Source: Octopus sinensis
Lineage: Eukaryota
DNA: 64,000 nucleotides
Assembly: GCF_006345805.1 (NCBI RefSeq)
Contig: NC_043003.1
Location: 103,044,001 to 103,108,000, forward strand
Direction: 5' to 3'
In this document: positions 21,555 to 61,125 of the stretch, in pieces
Numbering within the stretch: position 1 is the first letter of the stretch
How the letters are laid out: each line of letters begins with the position of its first letter
Notes under the pieces: model-generated
The model's database searches: none
The model's input: the letters and a program-made list of their open reading frames with translations, nothing else
Told to the model about the DNA's origin: nothing
Translations under genes and position numbers: made by a program

Positions 21555-23447
21555 CTTTATTTAAAAGCAGCAGAAATTCAACAAAACCTGTTACTCTGAG
21601 TTTCACGTTCCCGTTCGTCGGACAGTTTTTGTTAAAATAGAACCGATATGCCAATTCTATCAAGACTAGTATAAACGCTACACCTTTAAAAATGGACTTG
21701 TTTGATTGGTCCTTTCAAATAACGGTAATTTCGAGCGATAAACAAAAATGAGCTCAATATAAAATATAAAAATATATATAAAATTATAAAAGTCGAGGAA
21801 AAACCTTACATCGAATCTTTGGCTAAAATACATAGTCATTAATAAAGAAAATATAATTAATACATGGAAATTGAAATTAAAATATTAAAATGCATTAAAA
21901 TGTTTCACAACAGTACATACTCATACTAAACTATACATATATACATCAACATACACAGATAGATGTGCGTAGACCACATACATATACAGACATATAAATA
22001 CAAAACTAAAATATACACACAAATGCATGTACACATATGTATACGCAATCTAGATCTAGCTTCCATGCAAAATCACTGTATCCATATAGACTATAAGCTA
22101 AATTCATGGATGGGAAGGGGCGTTCTTATTTACAACATAAAGCTAAAGACATAGGTAAGGGAGGGGGAGGGGGGACGTAAAGTTACAGGGCTCTATACAA
22201 GTAATGAATAGGGGGAGAAAAAACGAAAGAACGGAAGAGAGAGAAAAAAGAAAAAGAGAAAAGGGAAAAAAGAAGGAAAGGAAAGAAGAAAAAATTATAA
22301 CATTCTGGCTATACGTTACGAGTTTTTGTATACTAATATGTAAGCACATATACTGACACATATATGAAGACAAGTACGCAAACACACAAGCCCAAGTGGA
22401 TACATGCATACACATACATTTGTGTATGTATGTGCTTAAGTACAAACATACGCTCACTTACACATATACAAAGACGTATGCTTACAAATACATATTCATG
22501 CCAATACACATATTCACGTAGAAATGCCTAGGATCTGACAACATTGTTTTTTTTTTTAAAAATGGTGAGTGCATAATAATAAAAATTAGACGAAAGACAT
22601 GCAAAATATAACACCCTATATCGGATTATCTATAAATTAAATTACCAAAGTGAGCCTATACAATATAATAAAATAAAATAAACTAAGTCGAAGGTTTTTC
22701 CTAAGGAATATGTAGAAATATAAACAAATTATAAACAAAATATATGCACAAGACTTTGCTATGCGGAATGAAACCTGCATAGCGCGAAACAAATCCATCG
22801 ATGTGATTTAAAGACTAGTCCAAGAATCAAAAATTCAAAAAGACAAAATATACGCTATCCATATGGGATATTTATGTTCGACATTTTAAATTTGGTTGCG
22901 TGCCTGCATGAGTTCAAAAGTTCGCTTCTTTGATTCAAAGAATTATTGTCTTTGAATAAAATGTAAAATTTTTCTAACAAACAAAGATTGCATTTAAAAG
23001 TTTTCTTGTGTGCCCCAGCCTGTATGGTCTCTCTATCTAGAAGGCTCCATGTCACGTTGAAAGGTGGGGCTTCTTTTTCTTTTAGTTCCCAGACATATTT
23101 TGCCAGGATGTTCTTCTTCCTATTTTCTGGGTATCTAAATGAATTTTTATGCGAATAAAATCGCGTTCTAAACAAATTTTCCGAAGCCCTTGTATAGGTC
23201 TTATATTCAGATGAGCCTTCTATTTGTACCTTGGCTCTATAAACGACCCCTTTTACCAAACATTTCCCTTCCAACGGACAGGAGGATTAACTTTACAATT
23301 GCATTTCTTAAGGGGATCGGCACCATGCTTAATATCAATTAAATTCCTATTGTGCTGGCTAATGTAAGAGGCGAAATTCCTGCAACAAGAATAGCTAATC
23401 TTAAGGGTTCTTCTATAAAATATTCTATAAAATTTATGGTCCTGCTT
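21555..23447 (-). mobile_element. 5'-truncated Penelope-like element: GIY-YIG endonuclease, long 3' UTR, terminal HHR; (TA)n on both sides
   Basis: ORF 22855-23274: GKCLVKGVVYRA..RTRFYSHKNSFR..LAKYVWELK..CNLCLLEK..LNQRSELLNSCRH. HHR at 21588-21625. Confidence 0.85.
21588..21625 (-). ncRNA. Minimal type I hammerhead ribozyme (U4C core variant)
   Basis: ctgt-CCGACGA-acg ggaa cgt-GAAA-ctc a gag-TA-acag. Confidence 0.75.
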
Positions 23448-25129: not shown

Positions 25130-28100
25130 CACATATAAAGCTATTACAGAAGAACCTGAAACACAAAGACACCTCAGGGAGAGAATGGCACTGGAAAAAA
25201 TGAAAATGGAAATAGAACTTCTGAAATTGAGGGCCCAAACGAATGAGGATAAAATAAAATCCACCGATGAAGATATCAACGAAGAAATTCGCAAAATGAC
25301 CCAAGGCCCAGATCAGAGAAGTTCTCCAAACTATGGAAAGAGGACTGTGAAAAAGAAGAACTAAATCTCTCCAACGCTGGGAGAAAAGCGCCACTTGGTT
25401 CTCAGACTATGAAGCCGTCTTTCAAACAGAGCACGCCTCCAACAACCCTTTCCAGAAAATAAGAAAACCAAAACAACACCCAAACACCGATACACACCTG
25501 TCTAAAAATCGGAACCTTCACTACTATCAAAAAAAGAATACAGGACCTAACCCTAACTCTGTAAGCAGCCAGCGATACAATATCAGGAATACCCCACTTC
25601 AAGCAGAGAAGGATAAATCAACACCCACAGCATAGACACTGCAACCTCATCCCCACCCAAAGGAGTTACCAACGAAATCTTCGTCCCATTAACCGGTTAA
25701 ACAACCATGCACAACAAACCCACACCACTTGCAATGATTACCAACGAAGGCCTCCTAGAACACCACACCCGATATGGGATATCGGGATGCTCTCCTCAAT
25801 ACTGCTCCAAGAACACACACCATAAATCACAACAGGAGACCCCTAATCAACAAAGAACAACTATATACTAGCTACCGTCCCAACCACCGCATTCATTTTT
25901 TAGACCCAATACGCAAACACAGAGACACAAGATAGCACCAAACAAGCAGGAGGAACCAAAAGTAATAAAAATTATTAATCTAACTCACAAGGAACTAACA
26001 GCAAACCAAATAAACATACTTTCCAAAGGACTCAAGTTTACACCCACCCCACAAACACCCCAACTACAATGAAATGAAAGAAGACATCGCAGAATTCTGC
26101 AGAAAATTAAGACTTACGGAGCTGAGCTATACGATAAAACAACGAGGACGAATCGTTAGCCAGAAATAGGAGTAACTACACCCCCTCGAAAGGTAAGAAT
26201 AAAACACTTGATGATTTCTGTGACCACATATCAAATTACCCATATCAACATATGCACAAACAAAAACACAAACCAAACTTCAGCAAAAAAGAATGGGCTG
26301 AGTTGAACAAATTAAAACTAGATAAAACAATAACAATCAAAGAGGCCGATAAAGGGAGTGCTGTTGTCTTAATGGATACGACATTTTACATAACTTTGGT
26401 ACTTTCTATGCTGGAAGACACAACATACTATGAAAAGGCACAAAACTACAGTCAACAAAAATAATGAGGGAACTAAAATCCATATTAAACCCATACAAAG
26501 CAGGGCTCACCGACAAAGAATATGATTATATGACCAATTTCACAAGTAAAACTAGCCAATTCTACGGTATACCTAAGATCCACAAAAGTGAAAAAATAAG
26601 CAACGCATGCAAGATAGCTACAGACAAAATAATTAAAGTCCCTAATCCTAATGACCTCAAATTGAGACCCATAATAGCAGGTCCCGCATGAAAACCCACC
26701 GCCTCAGTAACTTTTTAGACAGCCCTGTTAAAACCACTCCTCAAACATGTCAAAAGCTATATAAGGGACGACTTAGATATGCTCAATCACCTACCGAATA
26801 CTATAAACAAAAACACCATACTGGTATCCTTCGATGTAGTCAACCTCTACTCCAATATCCCCCACAACCTAGGACTAGAGGCAATCCAATTCTGGCTAGA
26901 GAATCACGCCAACGAACTACCACACCGCATCAAAAAAGAATTTGTGATAGAAGGGGTAAATTCATCCTGGAAAATAACTTCTTCGCCTTCAATGACAACT
27001 TCTACCGACAAAAATCGGGGACTGCGATGGGTACACGAATGGCCCCCTCCTTTGCCAACCTAGTCATAGGATACCTAGAGATCAGTCTGTATCGTAAGGT
27101 TCTAGAAAGATATGGCAGCCCTTTCTCCATCTACATAGAAAACAACTGGAAGAGATATCTAGATGACTGTTTCATCCTTTGGCATAAAAATATAGAAAAA
27201 CTCATAGAATTCCAGAAAATTTTAAACGGACTGGACGTAAACATCCAATTCACGATGGAATATAGCCAACAACAACTCCCCTTCCTCGATATCCTCATTA
27301 AGAAAGCTAATAATATAATAGAAACAGACATATACTATAAGCCTACAGACTCTAAGCAATATCTTCCATTCAATTCATGCCACCCCAGACACACCAGGAT
27401 GAATATCCCCTTCAATCTAGCAAAAAGGATATGCACTATAGTCTCTAACGCAAACACCAGAGACACACGACTACAAGAACTAAAAGATACCCTAATCACC
27501 AGGAACTATCCACCTTCACTTATTGACAATGCATTCAACGTGCCCTTCAACTTAACATCAAGGAACTGAGACATCCCAAATCAAAGAAAAACTTACAACC
27601 AAAAGCCTTACCATACATCTCCACACACAACCCTCTCAATAACGAAGCCTTCGACACCATCCTCCACAACATACCCCTCCTAAAAAAAGACCACAGAATG
27701 AACACAATCCTCCAAACACACACGATCATAAAAAGCAAAAGACAGCCTAGATCCATGAAAAGTCTCCTACACAAGCCCGAATTCACTCTTCAACACAGAA
27801 GCCGACAGTAAAAAAATGTGGAAGACCCAATTGCGGGATATGCGACTATCTAATCGAGGTTCTGAGTTCTCCTTCAAACAGGGACAACGTTTTACAGTGA
27901 AAAGCAACTTCACATGTGCTTCGGAGAACCTAATATACTCACTAACCTGCTCCGGGTGTCAAGAGCAGTACATAGGCCAAACAAAAAAAAATGGTTTGCG
28001 TAAACGAATGGCCCTGCACAGATCCCAGATAAAAATTCCCCAAAACAGAAAAATAGCTTTTAGCCAACACATAGATACTTGCGCCAACAAAAAAACACCA

Positions 28101-29021
28101 AACTTCAGAATTTTCCCCCTCTACCAATTTAGGGACGATACAACCTCGAGACAACGAATAAGTAAAGAAAATCTCTTTATTACAAAATACAAGCCACTTC
28201 TTAACGGGTCTACGACAAACAATTAATATACCTCAGCTTTAGAATAAAAGAAAAAAATATATATACACACACAAATACTACACTCCATAGAATCCATTAC
28301 TAATCAGCCCCTTCATAGCTATATTTACACCCATTCATATTCTCTTCTCTGTTTTCTTTCTTCTTCTTCTTCTTCTCTTCTTCTTCACCATCATCGTTAT
28401 CATCATCATCGGCATCATCATCATCGCCACCATCATCACCACCATCTTCTTCTCCTCCTTCTTCTCTTCTTCTTCTTCTTCATCATCATCGTTATCATCA
28501 TCATCGTCGTCATAATCATCACCACCATCACCATCATCGTCATCTTCTCCTTCTCCTTCTCTTCTTCTTCTTCTTCTTCTTCTCTCCACCCCTACCCCTT
28601 AAGTTTGTCACTAATGTTTTTTAGTATAACACCTACGCTAATTCTATAAACAAGCCTGTCAATATAAATATTCTCCTGAATTGAACTGAGACTGCCAGCC
28701 GCCACTGACCATTCAAAATACGACCATCAGGGCACTCCCCGATTCTCCCACCCCCCTTTCCTCACCAGCCTTCCCTCTACTACCCTACCAAGAACTCACA
28801 ACTACCTCGAACACACAAGTGCAAACAAGGGAGTCAGAGAAAGGCAGAATGCCACTTAATCTGAACACTACATAGAAATATTCTTTTAAAAAAACTTTTC
28901 TTCTAATTTTTCTAATTTAATTATTAATCGTTACAGTTGAAAAGGTCTCAAAATGACCGAAACCGGTACTGAAATGTTCACTATAAAATTATTTTAGCAT
29001 TTTCTATTTTTTACTTGTTTT

Positions 29022-29630: not shown

Positions 29631-29656
29631 CCTATAAAGAGAATTATATATAAGGA

Positions 29657-29889
29657 AGGCGGCGAGCTGGCAGAGACGTTAGCACGCCGGGCGAAGAGCT
29701 TCGCGGTATTTCGCCCGCCGCTACGTTCTGAGTTCAAATTCCGCCGAGGTCGACTTTGCCTTTCATCCTTTCAGGGTCGATAAATTAAGTACCAGTTATG
29801 CACTGGTATTTAATATAATCGACTAAATTCGTTTGTCTGTCCTTGTTTGTCCCCTCTGTGTTTAGCTCCTTGTGGGTAGTAAAGAAATA
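29657..29889 (+). mobile_element. tRNA-derived SINE family B with a long target-site duplication
   Basis: aggcggcgagctggcaga..gagttcaaattcc (A/B boxes). tataaagagaattatatataagg is repeated on both sides (~29633-29655 and ~29890-29912). Confidence 0.85.
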
Positions 29890-30162
29890 TATAAAGAGAA
29901 TTATATATAAGGGAAATGTTTATGTATAAAAATAATGCATATAAGTCGAAACAAATTGTTGATATTTGGATGTTTTAATAATCGTTTATGTTATCTTATG
30001 TTATATCATAGATCGGATTGTCAATTCTATCTCACTATTTTATCTTACCTGTGTAATTTGCATTATACCTATATTTATATGTTATTGAACTGACGTACCA
30101 GTGAACTGGATGTTTCACACACACACACACCTGATGGAATTTTTTCCTTAGTTTGTTAATTG

Positions 30163-30589: not shown

Positions 30590-32960
30590 ATATAAAAATT
30601 GGAAAATATTTATATATTCTAAAGTTATAAAGGTATACATATAGACACACATGATCCCTGCTGTACCCTTTCCATGTTACAAAGACCGCACTTGCCACTA
30701 CCGTTGGTATAAGGGTTACACTTGGCTAAGCATTTCCAGTAAATACTGTAGTTGACACCTTGTTCTTTTAAGAACCATATATAACTGGATAATTTAGTAG
30801 CCTTTCGTTTATTCCAATGTCTGAAGCTTAAGGTGTAATTGTTAAATCTAGCTTTAAAATTTCCCTCTGTGAGACCCACATATTACTAGGATGAAACTGT
30901 ATTATTAGCGTTGGTAGAATTTATAGTAGCTTCATAAATAATGACCTCCAGTTAGTGGGCACAGGTCTTTATTCCTGTATGACAGTCGGCTTCGTGGTGT
31001 TGTGTTGTATTGTGTGTGATTATGCTTTTAAAATTTGGGGTAGAACTAAAACTAATTTTTAGGTTATGTCTATTAAAGTTTTCTCTATATTTGTGATGTA
31101 CTGGAAAATGTCTATCTATAAGTGACAAGAAATATTTACCTATATTAAAGGTCACTTCGTGGGAGTAAAGGGGTTTAAACCAGATAATTTTCCTGTGTCT
31201 ATGTTTCCTTTTCTTTATTTCTGGTCTAATATTAGAAGTGTAAACTATTTCCTCTGTAAATCCACTAGCTTTGAGAGCATTGTTATACTGGGGCAGCATT
31301 ATTAAATATGTTTATATTGGAGGAGAGGCTAGAAATTCTCCTAATATTATTAACTAAATTCTTAAACACTATGTGGTGGAGTGACAGAAACCTACATTAA
31401 TATAACTAAGTCTATTCTTGGGCTTTCTATAGGGTTTGTAAATATTCTCTTGCAAATCTAGAGATACGTCAAGGAAATTGACAACCGTCAGGTTGGTATC
31501 TATCGTTTTCTTAAGATCAAATGCTTTCATAAGTTGGATAATATCCTTCCTTAAACGATCTTGCGCTGATCCATTGGTATTCTTAGTTAAAGCTAGATCG
31601 CTGTTCCTATAAATAGCAAAATATACACCAGGAAAGACTTTTCCTAACGTGTCGATCAGGAATAGCCCAATGAGATCACATATGTCTGCTCCAACATATG
31701 ACCCCATGCTCACATCGAAAGAATCCTCTGTGTCTGCTGTTTTGACCCTCTCTGCCTTCTCGCTGAGGAGTAAGGTCTTTCTAGCATGGAGGATTATATC
31801 CTTATCTTGTTCACTAATCTCTGTATAATCGCCTGCAAAAGTGAGAGGTTTTTTTAGAAATAAATGCATAGCAATCTACAATATCGAATTGTGTAAATCT
31901 GGCTTTATTCTTATTTATAATTGCTTTAAACCAGGCGCAGGAGTGGCTGTGTGGTAAGTAGCTTGCTAACCAACCACATGGTTCCGGGTTCAGTCCCACT
32001 GCGTGGCATCTTGGGCAAGTGTCTTCTGCTATAGCCCCGGGCCGACCAATGCCTTGTGAGTGGATTTGGTAGACGGAAACTGAAAGAAGCCTGTCGTATA
32101 TATGTATATATATGTATGTGTGTGTGTGTTTGTGTGTCTGTGTTTGTCCCCCTAGCATTGCTTGACAACCGATGCTGGTGTGTTTACGTCCCCGTCACTT
32201 AGCGGTTCGGCAAAAGAGACCGATAGAATAAGTGCTGGGCTTACAAAGAATAAGTCCCGGGGTCGATTTGCTCGACTAAAGGCGGTGCTCCAGCATGGCC
32301 GCAGTCAAATGACTGAAACAAGTAAAAGAGTAAAAGAGTTAACAACTTCTATATTATTGGACCATTGCTGCCTCTTTAACTTTAACATTACTTATCTTTT
32401 TAAATATCTTACTAATTATACCAATTTCTGATATTGTAGGGTTAATTACTCTGCATTTACCATCAGGTAAGAAGTTATTTTTATGCTTCTTAATAGTTAC
32501 AAAGACCTCTTTTTTTTAGAAGGATTACTATTTTTATCTAATTTAAACCTAGTGGCGATGACACTAGCTTCTTTATTAATGTCCTTATAAACTTGCGGTC
32601 TAGCCTTACGTAGCAGTTGTATGTGCTGTTGTCTACAACGTATAAGTTCTTTGTTTTATTAGAAAAAAGTGCCGTTTTGGAGGAATCTTTTATGTTTTTA
32701 ACGTCTTTTTTCGGTTTCTGTTAAAAAGTGTTAAAGGACTTACGAAATTTGGTCTTGTTTATAAGCTTCAGTAGATCTGTTTTGAAGTCTTCTAAGTCCT
32801 TGATTTTGGGAGGGAATTTCTTTGATTTAATTTCATGGTATATGTTCTCCGTGATAGACTCTTCCTTGTTTTAATGGAAGGCATTCAATCTCATACGTTT
32901 GATAAGATCAGTAATTTTTTCCAATAGATTTTTAAAGTATAGTTCCTTGGATGGTGTAGG
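30590..32960 (-). mobile_element. Decayed Penelope-like element (RT + GIY-YIG), interrupted by SINE A at 31933-32338
   Basis: FTQFDIVDCY, FDVSMGSYVGADICDLIG, VVNFLDVSLDL..YKPYRKP, RKIIWFKP, GLTEGNFKARFNN..ATKLSSYIW..CGLC. Confidence 0.9.
31933..32338 (+). mobile_element. Full-length tRNA-derived SINE family A
   Basis: ggcgcaggagtggctgtgtggtaag (A box), gggttcagtccc (B box), internal (TG)n, tail gtaaaagagtaaaagag. It splits the PLE reading EVVN|WFKAI. Confidence 0.9.
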
Positions 32961-35100: not shown

Positions 35101-35315
35101 GCAACAACAACAACAACAACAACAATAATAACACCGAAAAATACCTTAGGAATGAGAACCCAGGTTCGAAATTTCCCCAAGACACCTGATGAAGGCTGGA
35201 GGGTATATCAGCCGAAACGTTGTGTTAAGAACAAACAAGATGAGGACAAATATACGTCAAATGTAAATAATGCAAATAATGTACATAATTCCTCATCTCT
35301 TAAATATAGAACTGT
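34972..35315 (+). mobile_element. SINE-like element: tRNA-like head + (AAT)n + hammerhead-containing tail
   Basis: Head 34972-35043 with A box tggtgtagtgg and B box gagttcgattcc. (AAT/AAC)n at 35046-35131. HHR at 35182-35225. Confidence 0.8.
35182..35225 (+). ncRNA. Minimal type I hammerhead ribozyme, intact core, GUU site
   Basis: acac-CTGATGA-a-ggctg(gagggtatat)cagcc-GAAA-cg-TT-gtgt. Confidence 0.85.
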
Positions 35316-38989: not shown

Positions 38990-40050
38990 ATGTATCTTTT
39001 GAATGAAGCCATTGGCTATAAATACAGATGTCTCTTTGTAAACTATGGATGGTTTAAAACTATTCACAAAGAACAACTTCGGTACAGCGACATCGGTACA
39101 GAGTTGAATATATGCGCAGCTTATGCTACACTAAGGGTGACAAATTAATATTGATGACATTATGTTAGAAACAGATACTGAAAGCAATAAATTAGACCAC
39201 AAACCGCATAGAATAATTAAGAGTGGATTAAAAGGATAAGATACTGAACGTAGAAATGGAAAAGAAAACCATGAAAGATTCTTGTAAAAAATGTCACGTT
39301 AACATTAAGAAAATAAACCCAGAAGAGTTAAGGGTGTAACTATAGATCCTAGCTATGAAGTATAGTGTAAATAATATAAAGGGGATCTTCAAACTATACT
39401 ATAATAAAAAGATGGAGAGAGAAAGCTGGGAATCAATGCTTAGCCACAAACAATTACAAAAGTAAAACAATAGTACAAAAAGCAAACATCATTTACAGGC
39501 TGTGCAAATAAACAGTTGATTCCAAACATTCTGGATTCCCAAACCTCGTAAAGAGGGAATATGTCGACGATTATGACTGGAGTTTGCATTTATATTCACT
39601 AGGTAACTTGCCAATACTTCGACCCGAAAACTAAAGCAAAATGGTATAATTGTGAACCAGTTTCAGCGTATAACAGGGAACTGGCTACGATAATCTGGGA
39701 GAAGGATTCCAAACTAGCGAACAGATTGTTGCAAATCGGCCAAATATCAATAAAAGCACATTGAAATTCTATGTAATTTGATAGACACTTGGATGAATTT
39801 TGATCGTAACATTGCAGGAAAATATGTCAAACAGAAATTTTTTGAAACGAAAATAAGTAGAATGTTATGTATGAGAGAGAAACCTGTATCAATAGTAATA
39901 GGCACTCTCGGTATGATAATGAAGAACATGGACAAAAACATAAAACCCATTTTATTGCTTACGTCTTTGGATACAGTTCAAAGAATAGCTTTGCTATGCA
40001 GAATACTGCCTTACACAAAGTATTTCAAACACAATAAAGCAACTAAGAAA
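38990..40050 (+). mobile_element. Old decayed Dong-like LINE
   Basis: ORF 39778-40080 PVSIVIGTLGMIMKNMDKNI..VQRIALL matches the C-terminus of 384-608. Confidence 0.6.
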
Positions 40051-40546
40051 CTTTTGCATAGTTATTTCCCAATACTTTAAACTGAACGCACACAACAAAC
40101 ATGAAACACAATCACTATCCAACAAAATAAAACAGTTAGTTTAGTGCTACCATGTTTACTAAACGTGTTAAACCAGACTGAATACTGATGTGTTGTGGGA
40201 GGACAATCAACAATTGTACGTTGCAGGTGATAAGTAACTAGAAATACTGCTACAGAGAATACACGTATTTACTAGACGGATGTGTGTTGGATTTGGATTA
40301 GAAAAAATGTGCGAAGATAACCTTGAAGAAACGGAAGTAATTTTAGAGCACTTATTTAAGACGTGTAAGAGGATCAGTCTAAACACAAACACGGAAATAA
40401 ATAGAATACAATGAACTGACAGAATAAAACACATGCAAATGAAGGAAAAGGCTATGAAATAATATTATAAATGTGTTAGATTTATTCTTAGAATAGAGAC
40501 AAGTATGAAAAACAAAGTAATAGGTATCAACACCTAATAAGTTAGG

Positions 40547-41781
40547 TTAGAAATAATATATTTCTAAATCTCTCAGAGAGATTTATACAGTAGCAGCACG
40601 ATGAAGTGATAGCATGTTGTCAACTTAATATGACAGTCACACAAACATGAAGTGTCCCCAGAAACAAGAGGTGGAACAGGAGGTAGAACGGGAGCAGCAG
40701 GAGGAGAAGGTAGAGCAAGGTATGGTGGGGAAAGGCCAGGTAAAGGAAATAATGCAAGCAGTAGAAGCGAAAGACCCAGTCGGAAAGAGAAAGAAAAGAA
40801 GGCGGAAAATACATTATCGCCTCCAAAAAGCCCGCAGAAAAAGAGAAAAGGTAATTTGGAGGAGATGCAGATAGATGGCACAGAAATAACAAAAAAGAAA
40901 ATTGCAGAAGAGAGAAAAAAATGAAAACGAAAATATGCAGAAAGGAGCAGCGAGGAGCGGCAGTAAGATGGACACCCAAGTACCAGGAACATGGGGAGAG
41001 AGTGGAGATGAAAAGTGGGAAGAAGTGGCGAAAAGAAGAAATGTGAGGAGGATGGTGGAATACAAGAAGAGTATAGAGATAGAGAGGAGGATTACTAAGA
41101 TGAAAATGTTACAAGAGTTAAGATAACGGGAAGTGAATATACATAGGATGACAGAGCGGTTTTGCTGGAGAGTGACAGAGCGGATAAATTGGAAAAGCTG
41201 TTTGGTGAGCGGATTGAATTGACAAACCTGTGGTTTCGATGTGACGATCTGCCACCAGTGGTGCCATCTGAAGGCATTGTGCAATACTTTGTAGATGAAT
41301 ATAATAGTAAGTAAAACTGCAAAATTTAAATGTGCTTAAAAACAAAAAGAACCATAAACTGTTACACGAACATGAATTGCATAAACAGTTAAATGACACG
41401 GTTTGCGTATGGGGTGCAAACAAAACATTTCATTTTTCTCATTATATCACTATATTCATATTCATTCGATTTTCGTTTTATGTACCCCACTGTATAGTGT
41501 TGTCTGTCTTTGTTCGTCCCTTCTTTCTAAGAGCTTTATGCTTATAATAAAGAAAAAGCTAGCAAGCCATGTTACTCCAGACTGATGATGAGCAATGACT
41601 CCGAAACTAGTCTCTGGGCGCGGGTTTTGCTGGGTGGAGGTGATTGTCTCCCCTTTGAAAACATAAGGACACAGGAAATATGTCAAGTCCAACAGGAAAC
41701 GGTGTTTCTTAGGGCTAAATAACAGTAGCATTCTTCCCTTTTATGGGGCTGTCACATTAAGTTGACAACATGCTATCACTT
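40547..41781 (+). mobile_element. Non-autonomous HHR-bearing element with a 12-bp TSD and 33-bp inverted repeats (PLE-derived?)
   Basis: taataagttagg at 40535-40546 and 41782-41793. Inverted repeat 40604-40636 / 41749-41781 with 1 mismatch. HHR at 41577-41617. Confidence 0.8.
41577..41617 (+). ncRNA. Minimal type I hammerhead ribozyme, intact core, GUC site
   Basis: ccaga-CTGATGA-t gag caatga ctc c-GAAA-ctag-TC-tctgg. Confidence 0.85.
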
Positions 41782-42406
41782 TAATAAGTTAGGATTATAA
41801 TATTTTACAATGGGCGTTGCATAAATCGGCAAAACGAGGCAGAAATATACAAGAGAAACAACTATAAAACTGTCTAGTAACGAATAATTAGAAAATTAAT
41901 TTAAATAGGAACAAAATCTGGAAAAACCATTACGAGATAAAAGTTTATGACTAGAGCTGTGAGAATAATTTTTTTATAATTGAAACCGTTATAATTTAAA
42001 TTTAAAATAGAAATACAGAATGCCATAATACAATTATGGCAAGAAAAGCTCCGAAAGAGCCAATACTCGGCAAAAAACTAACAAAAACGGCGCTGAGAAG
42101 AATCAGCACATTAACTGGGAAGCGATTCTCAAAGAAGGTAGACAAGGAAAGAGTCATAATTGCACAGGATCAAAGGCTTCTGACTAAAAACCACCAAAGA
42201 CATGTAAGGAAACAAACTACATGAACTGCAGAATATGTGGAAATGAGAAACAGTAGTCCACATTGTCTCTGGTTCCCCAGTTTCAACCAAGAAGAACACA
42301 CCTACAACATGATAAGGTTGAGGGCTTGCGTACACCGGACGTAATATCAGAGTTACGAAATAACAAAATACGAACGGAGAGGCAGAATACACACATACAC
42401 ACGCAC

Positions 42407-43415: not shown

Positions 43416-43730
43416 AACTCTCAAAATACAAAGACCTGGAAATAGAGGTAACTAGAATGTGGAATCTGAAAACAGAAACAATTCCTATCATAGTAGGTGC
43501 ATTAGGCATGATAAAAAAATATTCAGACAAATACATAACAAAAACACCAGGACTTACAAACACATATAACATACAGAAAATTGCACTACTAGGCACTGCA
43601 CACATCCTACGCAGAACACTTTCCATACAATAACCATCAGAGCATCACAACAAATCACAGCACATACCCAAGGCACACAGAGCTGTGCTCGGTAGTGAAG
43701 TGAAAGCACGCTATAAAAATAAAACTACTG
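43416..43730 (+). mobile_element. Short, young 3' copy of the Dong-like LINE in a (TAA)n tract
   Basis: Nearly identical to the reverse complement of 287-601. Preceded by ~300 bp of (AAT)n and followed by aataatgata. Confidence 0.9.
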
Positions 43731-43929
43731 AATAATGATAGTAATAATAGTAATGGTTTCTTTTTTAGCCACAAGGCTCTATTATATACTACGTATATAA
43801 TGTTGAAGTGTGTTAAACATTAAAAAAAAATTATATTCATAAAGTTCAATGAGCTCTTTCAAACGTTCGTGGTAATCATCAAATTTCAAAATGTATTAAC
43901 TGACAGTTGACGACTGTAGTAAAATGACA

Positions 43930-44120: not shown

Positions 44121-44259
44121 AGTTGAAACGCTGTTTGATTTATTCTTTCAGCGTACAATTTTCACCAACTTTGACATCACCCCTTCCTTCCTTATTCATA
44201 AATTTAAAAGTATTATTATAGTAGAAAAAATGCAAAACCCAGCAACAGCAGCGGATCAT

Positions 44260-45882
<1,623 letters not shown>

Positions 45883-50988: not shown

Positions 50989-51049
50989 TATATATATAAA
51001 ATAGAGAGATACAAATGACAATCCAATAATTATGAAATAACATTAACCA

Positions 51050-51275
51050 AGGCGGCGACCTGGCAGAGACGTTAGCAAACCGGGCAAAATGCTGAGCGGT
51101 ATTTCGTCTTCCGCTACGTTCTGAGTTCAAATTCCGCCGAGGTCGACTTTGCCTTTCATCCTTTCGGGGTCGATAAATTAAGTACCAGTACGCACTGGGG
51201 TCGATATAATCGACTTAATCCGTTTGTCTGTCCTTGTTTGTCCCCTCTGTGTTTAGTCCCTTGTGGGTAGTACAG

Positions 51276-51280
<5 letters not shown>
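51050..51280 (+). mobile_element. SINE family B
   Basis: Near-identical to 29657-29889 and 60893-61125. Confidence 0.9.
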
Positions 51281-51310
<30 letters not shown>

Positions 51311-60073: not shown

Positions 60074-60892
60074 ATATACCAAAGCTATATATGAAAGCTT
60101 TCATATATGTACACACAAACTCATACATGCACACATTCACACACGCACATACTCACACACACACATGCACTCAGACATACACACACACAGCCACAGTTTC
60201 AGGTAGAGAGATTATGTAAGACGCTCGATAGGAAATAAGCCCATAAGTGATCCATACGTGAAAATAAAAATATATAGCGTCCATATTTATACAGCTTGTC
60301 TCCATGAAGTCTATCGCAATTTTTTGAACTTACTCTTTCTGAGTTATCATTTTTAGTAATTGCGGTATTTCGCTTCAGAAGACATGAAAAGCTAGGAAGA
60401 GGATGGTGGATGATGTCGGATGAGGGTGAATATATAAATAAGAGAAATAACAATGCCATAAACCCCATAAAGTAATGATAATTGTAACAACAATAATAAC
60501 AACAATGATAACAATTTATAAAATGAAGAAAGAAAAGCAATAGCAACGGTCAAGGACAACATCTATGGGAATGACAACGACAATAATAACTAAAATAACA
60601 TCAACAGAAAATTACAAAATACAAAAACATCATAGAATAACGACAACCGTAATAACGCCAACAATGAGAATAAAATTATAAAATCCTCAATTGTAGCGGT
60701 GAAGAGCCACAACAGCAGCAAGTAAACAGGAATAAAAAGCAGAAATCTAACATCAGAGAACAAGAACAGTCATGAAAATAACAAGAAGTGGGATTCATAA
60801 GGCCAGAGTTTAATCCGGTTTCTATGGCGTATAAAGTGACTGACTTTACAACGCCCTCGCCTGCACAGGACGCCGATACGTTGCAGGGTTTA

Positions 60893-61125
60893 AGGCGGCG
60901 AGCTGGCAGAAACGTTAGCACGCCGGGCGAAATGCGTAGCCGTATTTCGTCTGCCATTACGTTCTGAGTTCAAATTCCGCCGAGGTCGACTTTGCCTTTC
61001 ATCCTTTCGGGGTCGATAAATTAAGTACCAGTTACGCACTGGCGTCGATATAATCGACTTAATCCGTTTGTCTGTCTTTGTTTGTCTTCTCTGTGTTTAG
61101 CCCCTTTTGGGTAGTAAAGAAATAG
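60893..61125 (+). mobile_element. SINE family B inserted in a family C-like SINE, with TSD-like gttgcagggtt
   Basis: gttgcagggtt(t)aa occurs just before (~60880) and just after (~61130) the element. Confidence 0.85.

Follow-up and report, generated by a model that had tools for sequence, protein, structure and literature searches.

Introduction

Insertions made by endonuclease (EN)-bearing Penelope-like elements (PLEs) have been described with a layout in which an inverted, 5′-truncated copy of the element is accompanied by an optional tail and by a target-site duplication (TSD) of 8–10 bp (PMC8557442; PMC3846280; PMC2377424). Here we report on an insertion with ends of this kind in Octopus sinensis, at positions 40535–41793 of a 64,000-nucleotide stretch of contig NC_043003.1 (RefSeq assembly GCF_006345805.1, forward-strand positions 103,044,001–103,108,000; hereafter the window, to which all coordinates below refer). 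We interpret the insertion as a probable 5′-truncated and decayed member of a low-copy subfamily that bears gag and has its hammerhead-containing 3′ end in common with a very abundant repeat; a Penelope-like reverse transcriptase (RT) and endonuclease likely inserted it in trans.

Among EN-bearing PLE insertions, Pen2a_Av and the cargo mobilized by Pen3a (PMC3846280), the general scheme given in PMC8557442 and Penelope of Drosophila virilis (PMC2377424) have in common with the octopus insertion an inverted 5′-truncated left copy, a tail on one arm, a short duplication and a hammerhead motif near the 3′ end. In Pen3a-type cargo, unrelated sequence is carried in trans ahead of the terminal repeat (PMC3846280). 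Unlike these insertions, the copy studied here has neither an RT nor a GIY-YIG domain, its tail is 57 bp long with two hairpins rather than 30–40 bp, and its upstream part is a gag-like gene found in several divergent copies.

Three further systems share particular features. Poseidon of Anolis carolinensis (PAc), as described in PMC11167929, has an AUG that arises from an extra U at hammerhead position 9, two ends that bracket a tail downstream of the ribozyme, and AT-rich targets, as does the octopus insertion. However, PAc is autonomous and has been tested in vitro, whereas our insertion is known from sequence alone; its ends are 169 and 226 nt downstream of the predicted cleavage site, and its helix II is shorter. 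Chlamys-2_cBra of Chara braunii, according to its description in PMC8557442, combines a gag-like zinc-knuckle gene with a 3′ hammerhead in a PLE. That element, which we compared by its description, is algal, 5.3 kb long and complete with an RT, whereas the octopus insertion has an animal host, carries its gag-like gene directly before the hammerhead module and has no RT that we could see. Animal non-LTR retrozymes, as portrayed in PMC7229834, also have a type I hammerhead with a long helix I and a weak palindromic helix III, are highly abundant and have been proposed to be mobilized by PLEs, but they are non-coding tandem arrays of 150–450-bp units expressed as circles (PMC7229834). The octopus insertion is not tandem and instead contains a coding remnant and inverted arms.

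Outside the PLEs, HeT-A of Drosophila is a gag-only non-autonomous retroelement, which is telomeric, is of the long interspersed element (LINE) type and lacks a hammerhead. By analogy, the octopus insertion would resemble HeT-A in carrying a gag-like gene without an RT and in presumably being mobilized in trans.

Results

The insertion has a duplicated target and asymmetric inverted ends

The sequence TAATAAGTTAGG is present at 40535–40546 and again at 41782–41793, with all 12 positions identical, and it occurs only these two times in the window when both strands are counted; given the local base composition, a 12-bp duplication would arise by chance at about 3e-7 per site. Between the two copies sit 1235 bp. 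Positions 40604–40636 match the reverse complement of 41749–41781 at 32 of 33 positions, and this inverted repeat is asymmetric, being flush with the right end and lying 57 bp inside the left end. Both the 12-bp TSD and the asymmetric 33-bp repeat had been proposed in an initial annotation of the sequence, and both were borne out. The left 57 bp (40547–40603) contain two adjacent perfect hairpins, at 40548–40566 (8 bp) and 40567–40583 (7 bp), each with a 3-nt loop and a putative role, which the annotation had not mentioned. At the right end, 41781 is not preceded by poly(A) or a simple repeat.

The inverted arm, which comprises the 57 bp and the left repeat and reads on the minus strand, is thus 90 bp long. 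It meets a forward copy of 1145 bp head to head at 40636/40637: the perfect repeat stops at 40636 and protein homology begins at 40638, so the two sides probably share at most about one base. The forward copy, on the plus strand, consists of a broken gag-like gene (40638–41314), an AT-rich spacer (41315–41560) and a high-copy, pseudo-LTR (long terminal repeat)-like 3′ module (41557–41781) that contains a type I hammerhead motif (41561–41631).

The 57 bp belong to the 3′ module of an abundant family

Other copies were surveyed using contigs of 4 public runs (of 24 listed), which were placed on 39900–42350 at 80% likeness. Depth was summed over contigs and is given relative to single-copy contigs, which does not equal copy number; in run X16, parts of both flanks were uncovered. 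In all four runs, summed depth was ∼1,100–8,200 times single-copy over three bins of 41540–41785 and 1,200–3,300 times over 40556–40637, compared with 1–26 times in the interior, such that the contrast between module and interior exceeds a hundredfold. In three of the four runs, depth climbs towards the 3′ end, as 5′ truncation would give. Upstream of 41557 most module copies differ from the insertion studied (agreement 0.56–0.67, alike in all four runs), and the upstream sequence of these abundant copies has no match within the window.

The contigs also reveal what follows the module elsewhere. Behind 41783, loose ends have a consensus in which 28 of 30 letters are those of the left 57 bp in reverse complement. 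Since their agreement is only about 0.5 (0.49–0.51), some copies end at 41781. In three of the four runs, a joint connects 40602 to 41782 on opposite strands, with a shorter side of 43–55 letters, longer than the repeat itself. Together, the loose ends and this joint identify the 57 bp as the family's own 3′ tail, which is optional among copies. At the outer edge of the tail, loose ends before 40547/40548 are heterogeneous and AT-rich in all four runs (agreement 0.43–0.49), which marks this position as a fixed terminus of the family. The right 225 bp and the left 57 bp are therefore one 3′ module, and at the left the 3′ end is present once more, inverted and with its optional tail, so that the left repeat is no fixed terminal repeat. 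The annotation had recognized the asymmetry; what needs correcting is its treatment of the 57 bp as sequence of no stated origin. In the insertion studied, the tail is present on the left arm only and is missing from the right end, and the tail-less end at 41781 is likely a second start site of reverse transcription.

A different joint, 40548–41562, was seen on a single-depth contig in three of the four runs and leads from the end of the tail to the start of the outer helix of the hammerhead. It fits a head-to-tail pair that begins at the ribozyme and is the only joint of this kind, at single depth, among the rows listed.

In run X6, contigs reach 30 and 27 letters into the element, just short of the 31 letters that count as bridging, which suggests a filled site that is not bridged. 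The length of the TSD is known from the insertion studied alone, at 12 bp. An exact 21-nt search with the repeat returned no matches in metagenome, viral and prokaryote collections.

Inverted arms differ from copy to copy

If the inverted repeats were fixed terminal inverted repeats (TIRs), other copies should carry the same ends; if each insertion builds its own arm, the inverted segments should vary. This comparison, which the annotation had proposed, was carried out on the best-supported 15 of 128 joints and on 12 of 37 rows of a second table. Among these rows are 14 distinct junctions between an inverted arm and a forward module (6 in the 15 joints and 8 more in the 12 rows), with arms of 27–82 bp and forward parts of 59–223 bp; the arm of the insertion studied measures 90 bp. 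The whole 33-bp left repeat is present in none of the 14, and 11 of the 14 arms stop short of its start. Each junction has a depth of 45–90 in run X1, where single-copy flanks have 39–51. As the rows listed are the best supported and all lie at about single-copy depth, no junction type appears to be amplified. Arms that are variable and of single depth fit a process in which every insertion makes an arm of its own; fixed TIRs or amplified deletion derivatives would not be expected to give them. The variable arms, and the tail found behind the right end in other copies, support the annotation's proposal that the locus mimics a miniature inverted-repeat transposable element (MITE) and is a non-autonomous PLE derivative with an inverted segment.

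A hammerhead motif lies within the 3′ module

At 41577–41617 all core letters of a hammerhead are present, with a GUC that ends at 41612, after which cleavage is predicted, and a palindromic helix III of two pairs. The annotation had called this motif intact, and for the core and the GUC that holds; the base of helix II, however, is irregular and can be drawn with a U-C mismatch or with a bulged C and one additional U, and, as discussed below, neither Rfam nor the free fold favors a hammerhead. A descriptor, written after the motif was seen, matches twice in the window (at 41577 and 35181) and not at all in 300 simulated 64-kb sequences. The 56-nt piece containing the hammerhead folds no better than shuffled sequences (z +1.4).

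Helix I extends to about 18 pairs over 41561–41631 and begins within 4 nt of the high-copy boundary. In the copy studied it has 13 Watson-Crick pairs, 3 G-U pairs and 2 mismatches, whereas with the majority letters of other copies all 18 positions are Watson-Crick, a count that leans towards the claim because the register was chosen by eye. An extra U at 41589 creates an ATG at 41588–41590. Two features listed for Penelope-type hammerheads, a palindromic helix III and one additional base located between positions 9 and 10.1 (PMC4209133), are found here; with a helix I that is long and a helix II that is short, the motif also resembles the canonical animal hammerheads of that paper (PMC4209133).

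AATAAA is located just before the 3′ module. Within 41500–41562, a pyrimidine-rich tract, two AG dinucleotides and this AATAAA stand directly ahead of the hammerhead; in Penelope of D. virilis, an intron ends at helix I (PMC4209133), a parallel that we note as a lead. Elsewhere in the window, an (AAT)n/(CAA)n tract is closely followed by another hammerhead motif, at 35181–35227 (plus strand), which is unrelated to the first and belongs to the minimal Penelope type. This motif has an extra base after the first core box, a longer helix II, no loop III and a GUU triplet instead of GUC.

The interior is a gag-like gene remnant by homology

As judged from protein homology, the interior corresponds to the 3′ part, now frameshifted, of a gag-like gene in a low-copy subfamily. 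Using phmmer with 41099–41311, we found 3 proteins among 1.84 billion, all from Octopus bimaculoides (E 1.5e-9 to 3.6e-7), and a profile of these returned 8 relatives (O. bimaculoides, 7; O. sinensis, 1). All 8 align to 40638–41293 in two alternating frames (tblastn). A zf-CCHC domain was found in 4 of them, in 1 case above the Pfam curated cut-off, and no RT family in any. Of a CCHC knuckle the remnant keeps the final His and Cys, which are followed by a K/E-rich linker and a C-terminal domain of ∼75 amino acids; the copy studied starts inside the knuckle, of which only His-x4-Cys is left, directly after the inverted arm. The frame changes near 40793, 40921 and 41102, and there is an in-frame stop at 41144. 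Other copies have single-base indels at 40793, 40921 and 41102, that at 40793 being a minority (84 of 385 depth in run X1). The annotation had described a single reading frame at 40652–41126; its K/E-rich character stands, but the sequence is part of a frameshifted remnant that spans 40638–41314. No RT or transposase was detected by Pfam in the frames of the interior that were scanned, as had been claimed.

The gene stops at 41314, and the relatives end at about the same place (all 3 phmmer proteins and also P0005). It is followed by 246 bp of 31% G+C (41315–41560), likely a 3′ untranslated region, in which no Pfam family exceeds chance level. Divergent contigs overlap from the end of gag through the spacer into the hammerhead, and the link between gag and hammerhead is therefore not unique to the locus studied. 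A protein circularly permuted around the hammerhead was also considered and was dropped, since the gag profile matched no part of the spacer, module or tail.

The C-terminal domain of a relative is modeled as beta-alpha-beta-beta-alpha-beta with a pLDDT of 83–87, while the N-terminal half of the model is of low confidence. Compared with ferredoxin-like folds, the best match has Z 5.9 (root-mean-square deviation [rmsd] 3.1, 68 residues aligned), and an RRM gives Z 4.7 (rmsd 2.8, 63 aligned); the model had no matches by Foldseek at E ≤ 0.001 or by VIA at Z ≥ 8. The description of this domain as RRM-like is a lead that comes from the predicted structure. In gag-like or LINE ORF1-type proteins, RNA-binding domains of this sort would accompany a CX2CX4HX4C knuckle. 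Language-model neighbors of the protein include CCHC and ZCCHC3-like RNA-binding clusters at 0.87–0.89, below the 0.9 bar. Word-indexed protein searches with two stop-free pieces gave 0 of 19 and 0 of 6 candidates, the Atlas likewise gave none, and the gag profile found no confirmed loci in metagenome (587 pattern matches) or viral contigs (600).

Two observations concern the rest of the gene. On a 580-nt X1 contig, from another copy, the match to 40652–40991 is preceded by 234 nt that probably represent the upstream gag sequence missing here. In the relative P0002, the N-terminal 50 residues repeat the C-terminal domain of the family (E 1.8e-9 to 6.3e-7), which may reflect two tandem copies fused in one gene model or a true internal repeat; this repetition had prompted the idea of a circular permutation.

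Within the spacer, 25 bp (41500–41524) match at 88% a repeat family found at 29656–29909, 51049–51300 and 60892–61124. This may be a fragment of a short interspersed element or chance, and it may inflate the depth of the 41458–41539 bin.

The insertion is flanked by decayed LINE sequence

The annotation had the insertion split an old Dong-like LINE, and we found that both flanks match one LINE fragment near the start of the window. The left flank (39591–40534, plus strand), which consists of decayed LINE fragments, matches 426–847 by tblastx (38–39% identity, E 2.5e-11), and the decayed LINE continues in the right flank (41794–42294, plus strand), where 41980–42294 matches 881–1200 (44–56% identity, E 5.6e-10). 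The fragment matched by the right flank carries a zf-RVT domain (Pfam, E 5.4e-6). Pfam found nothing in either flank. The Dong/R4 label and the continuity of the LINE across the duplicated site are presumed, having been judged by eye from motifs that Pfam did not confirm.

A better-preserved LINE 3′ fragment lies at 263–1491 on the minus strand (zf-RVT, E 5e-6), and a second copy of it, 339 bp long and 98% identical, is at 43416–43754.

Other Penelope-like sequences in the window

A decayed PLE at 26138–28226 (plus strand) contains an RT (RVT_1, E 0.002) followed by a GIY-YIG domain (E 2e-4); it has no similarity to the 3′ module. Further Penelope-like remnants were seen by eye at 22855–23286, 30952–31875 and 44225–45136. 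For Octopus vulgaris, 31 recently active Penelope-like families are counted, rather than described, in the account given in PMC13282606.

Discussion

How did this insertion form? Since Pfam, in the frames scanned, shows no open reading frame (ORF) with RT and GIY-YIG domains in the copy studied, as an autonomous EN-bearing PLE would have, we file it as a non-autonomous PLE derivative with a putative partner. Three features of such a derivative are present: at the left, the 3′ end occurs as an inverted and variably truncated copy; the tail is found at one end only; and the 3′ module contains a type I hammerhead motif. According to PMC11167929, the Poseidon protein nicks and extends both strands of AT-rich DNA in vitro, and reverse transcription is initiated internally on the RNA at two sites, one on either side of the genomic tail. 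By such a route, two nicks 12 nt apart in AT-rich DNA would each prime reverse transcription. One cDNA would start at the end of the tail (40547) and be 90 nt long; a second would start 57 nt further in (41781) and run for 1145 nt before halting inside the zinc knuckle. The two cDNAs would then be joined head to head at 40636/40637, and repair would duplicate the 12 bp. However, self-priming on an antisense template is favored for such arms in PMC3846280, and the route to the arm is therefore not settled. Cleavage of the precursor RNA by the hammerhead would take place after 41612 and, since helix III consists of two pairs around a palindrome, would likely depend on a dimer or on help from protein. 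For the lizard element, cleavage by the hammerhead is reported to be dispensable for insertion (PMC11167929).

Several explanations for the ends compete with a Penelope-type insertion. A MITE or another TIR DNA transposon would account for a 33-bp inverted repeat beside a duplicated target, but the left repeat lies 57 bp inside rather than at the terminus and is kept whole at none of the listed junctions. Moreover, the ends are more than 100 times deeper than the interior, and the junctions are of single depth rather than amplified deletion derivatives. The junctions of other copies have already largely refuted this reading, which we regard as barely conceivable. The asymmetry of the repeat could also be that of a non-autonomous Helitron2/Helentron on the minus strand, with its 5′ repeat at 41781, a subterminal 3′ repeat at 40636–40604, terminal hairpins, and a captured gag gene and hammerhead. 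An asymmetric inverted repeat followed by hairpins, two of them within 57 bp, does look like this class, and some Helitron2/Helentron elements are described as having 7–19-bp duplications (PMC3627910). Its published repeats, however, are 8–15 bp long and lie 20–30 bp from the end (PMC3627910), compared with 33 and 57 here. In addition, most of the arms in the listed junctions fail to reach the repeat, none of the junction types is amplified, and in other copies the right end continues into the same tail, all of which makes a Helitron highly improbable.

The remaining alternatives involve target-primed insertion, to which the 12-bp duplication is suited whatever the enzyme. A LINE, for example of the L1/Tx1 type, might have mobilized the sequence, the inversion being the product of twin priming and the hammerhead module a retrozyme-like passenger. 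L1-Tx1 families are listed as recently active in O. vulgaris (PMC13282606). The CCHC/ZCCHC3-like language-model neighbors, being below the bar, are only a lead in the same direction. What argues against a LINE is the lack of poly(A) or a simple repeat at 41781 and the form of the inversion. Under twin priming, the inverted segment comes from further upstream in the template and does not overlap the forward part; in the octopus insertion, by contrast, the duplicated segment is the 3′ end, with the arm beginning 57 nt past the end of the forward copy. Tandem or inverted pseudo-LTRs and tails are, according to PMC8557442, unseen in non-LTR insertions, and a LINE is very unlikely as the agent. It is also possible to keep the insertion mechanism of a PLE and see the copy as the terminal piece of an autonomous two-gene element, in which a gag-like ORF1 is followed by a hammerhead whose AUG starts the RT-endonuclease gene. 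As with the start codon of anole Poseidon (PMC11167929), the ATG at 41588 shares bases with the hammerhead core; a stop-free run of 43–44 codons lies behind it, and Chlamys-2_cBra of Chara offers a precedent for a gag-like ORF1 with a 3′ hammerhead (PMC8557442). The frame from 41588, however, stops before the end of the element and again in the tail, and it has no match to the Penelope fragments of the window and no meaningful Pfam hit. As the copy is decayed, the failure of this frame weighs little, and we consider a two-gene element unlikely. Whether the copy derives from such an element or from a non-autonomous subfamily mobilized in trans, the insertion is very probably of the Penelope type.

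A number of observations weigh against the non-autonomous PLE derivative that we prefer. Within the window, no RT or GIY-YIG partner that shares the 3′ module was matched, and no empty-site joint was found among the joints listed. Run X16 has neither a steady 3′ rise in depth nor any of the listed arm junctions, 4 of the 6 junctions from the joint table have unknown letters between their two sides, and the tail, at 57 bp, exceeds the published 30–40 bp. As for the ribozyme, no Rfam hammerhead family matched at the gathering score or was among the 4 matches at E ≤ 10; an unconstrained fold of 41561–41631 (−17.5 kcal/mol) is better than the hammerhead-constrained one (−15.0); and the perfect pairing of helix I also uses a loose-end consensus of 0.67 agreement. 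Core positions do not occur among the 40 listed of 572 substitution rows, from which known majority differences are missing as well. Finally, no single divergent contig spans gag to hammerhead, and the search for relatives took in proteins of 113–499 residues only, so that fused forms could escape it.

If the octopus insertion is a non-autonomous PLE derivative, where does its gag-like gene come from? The gene may be the subfamily's own or may be a once-captured piece of the ORF1 of another retroelement, and we judge the chances to be about even, since terminal repeats have been described as carrying unrelated DNA in trans (PMC3846280). A more specific, tentative possibility, which we consider doubtful, is that Octopus harbors a gag-only satellite lineage of PLEs: a hammerhead-ended RNA that would encode its own zinc-knuckle RNA-binding protein and no RT, form head-to-tail pairs and borrow a Penelope enzyme through a 3′ module that it has in common with one of the very abundant repeats of the genome.

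The architecture of the ends is already known for PLEs, and it is the gag cargo that is unusual for an animal. Literature searches, at the level of listings and in one case weak, did not find a gag-bearing hammerhead module in an animal or octopus. An entry for the family may already exist in the O. vulgaris repeat library, Repbase or Dfam.

PLE copies with ends such as these are easily misfiled as MITEs or Helitrons. The two sharp 3′ ends, 57 nt apart in very many natural copies, provide a large test set for the model of two start sites, which has so far been shown in vitro for one lizard element. Animal EN-bearing PLEs have been described as having a single ORF; a multi-copy subfamily that bears gag ahead of the hammerhead would, if true, either extend the design seen in Chara to animals or represent a gag-only parasite of PLEs. 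A gag-only satellite, if true, would give PLEs an equivalent of HeT-A and other gag-only elements.

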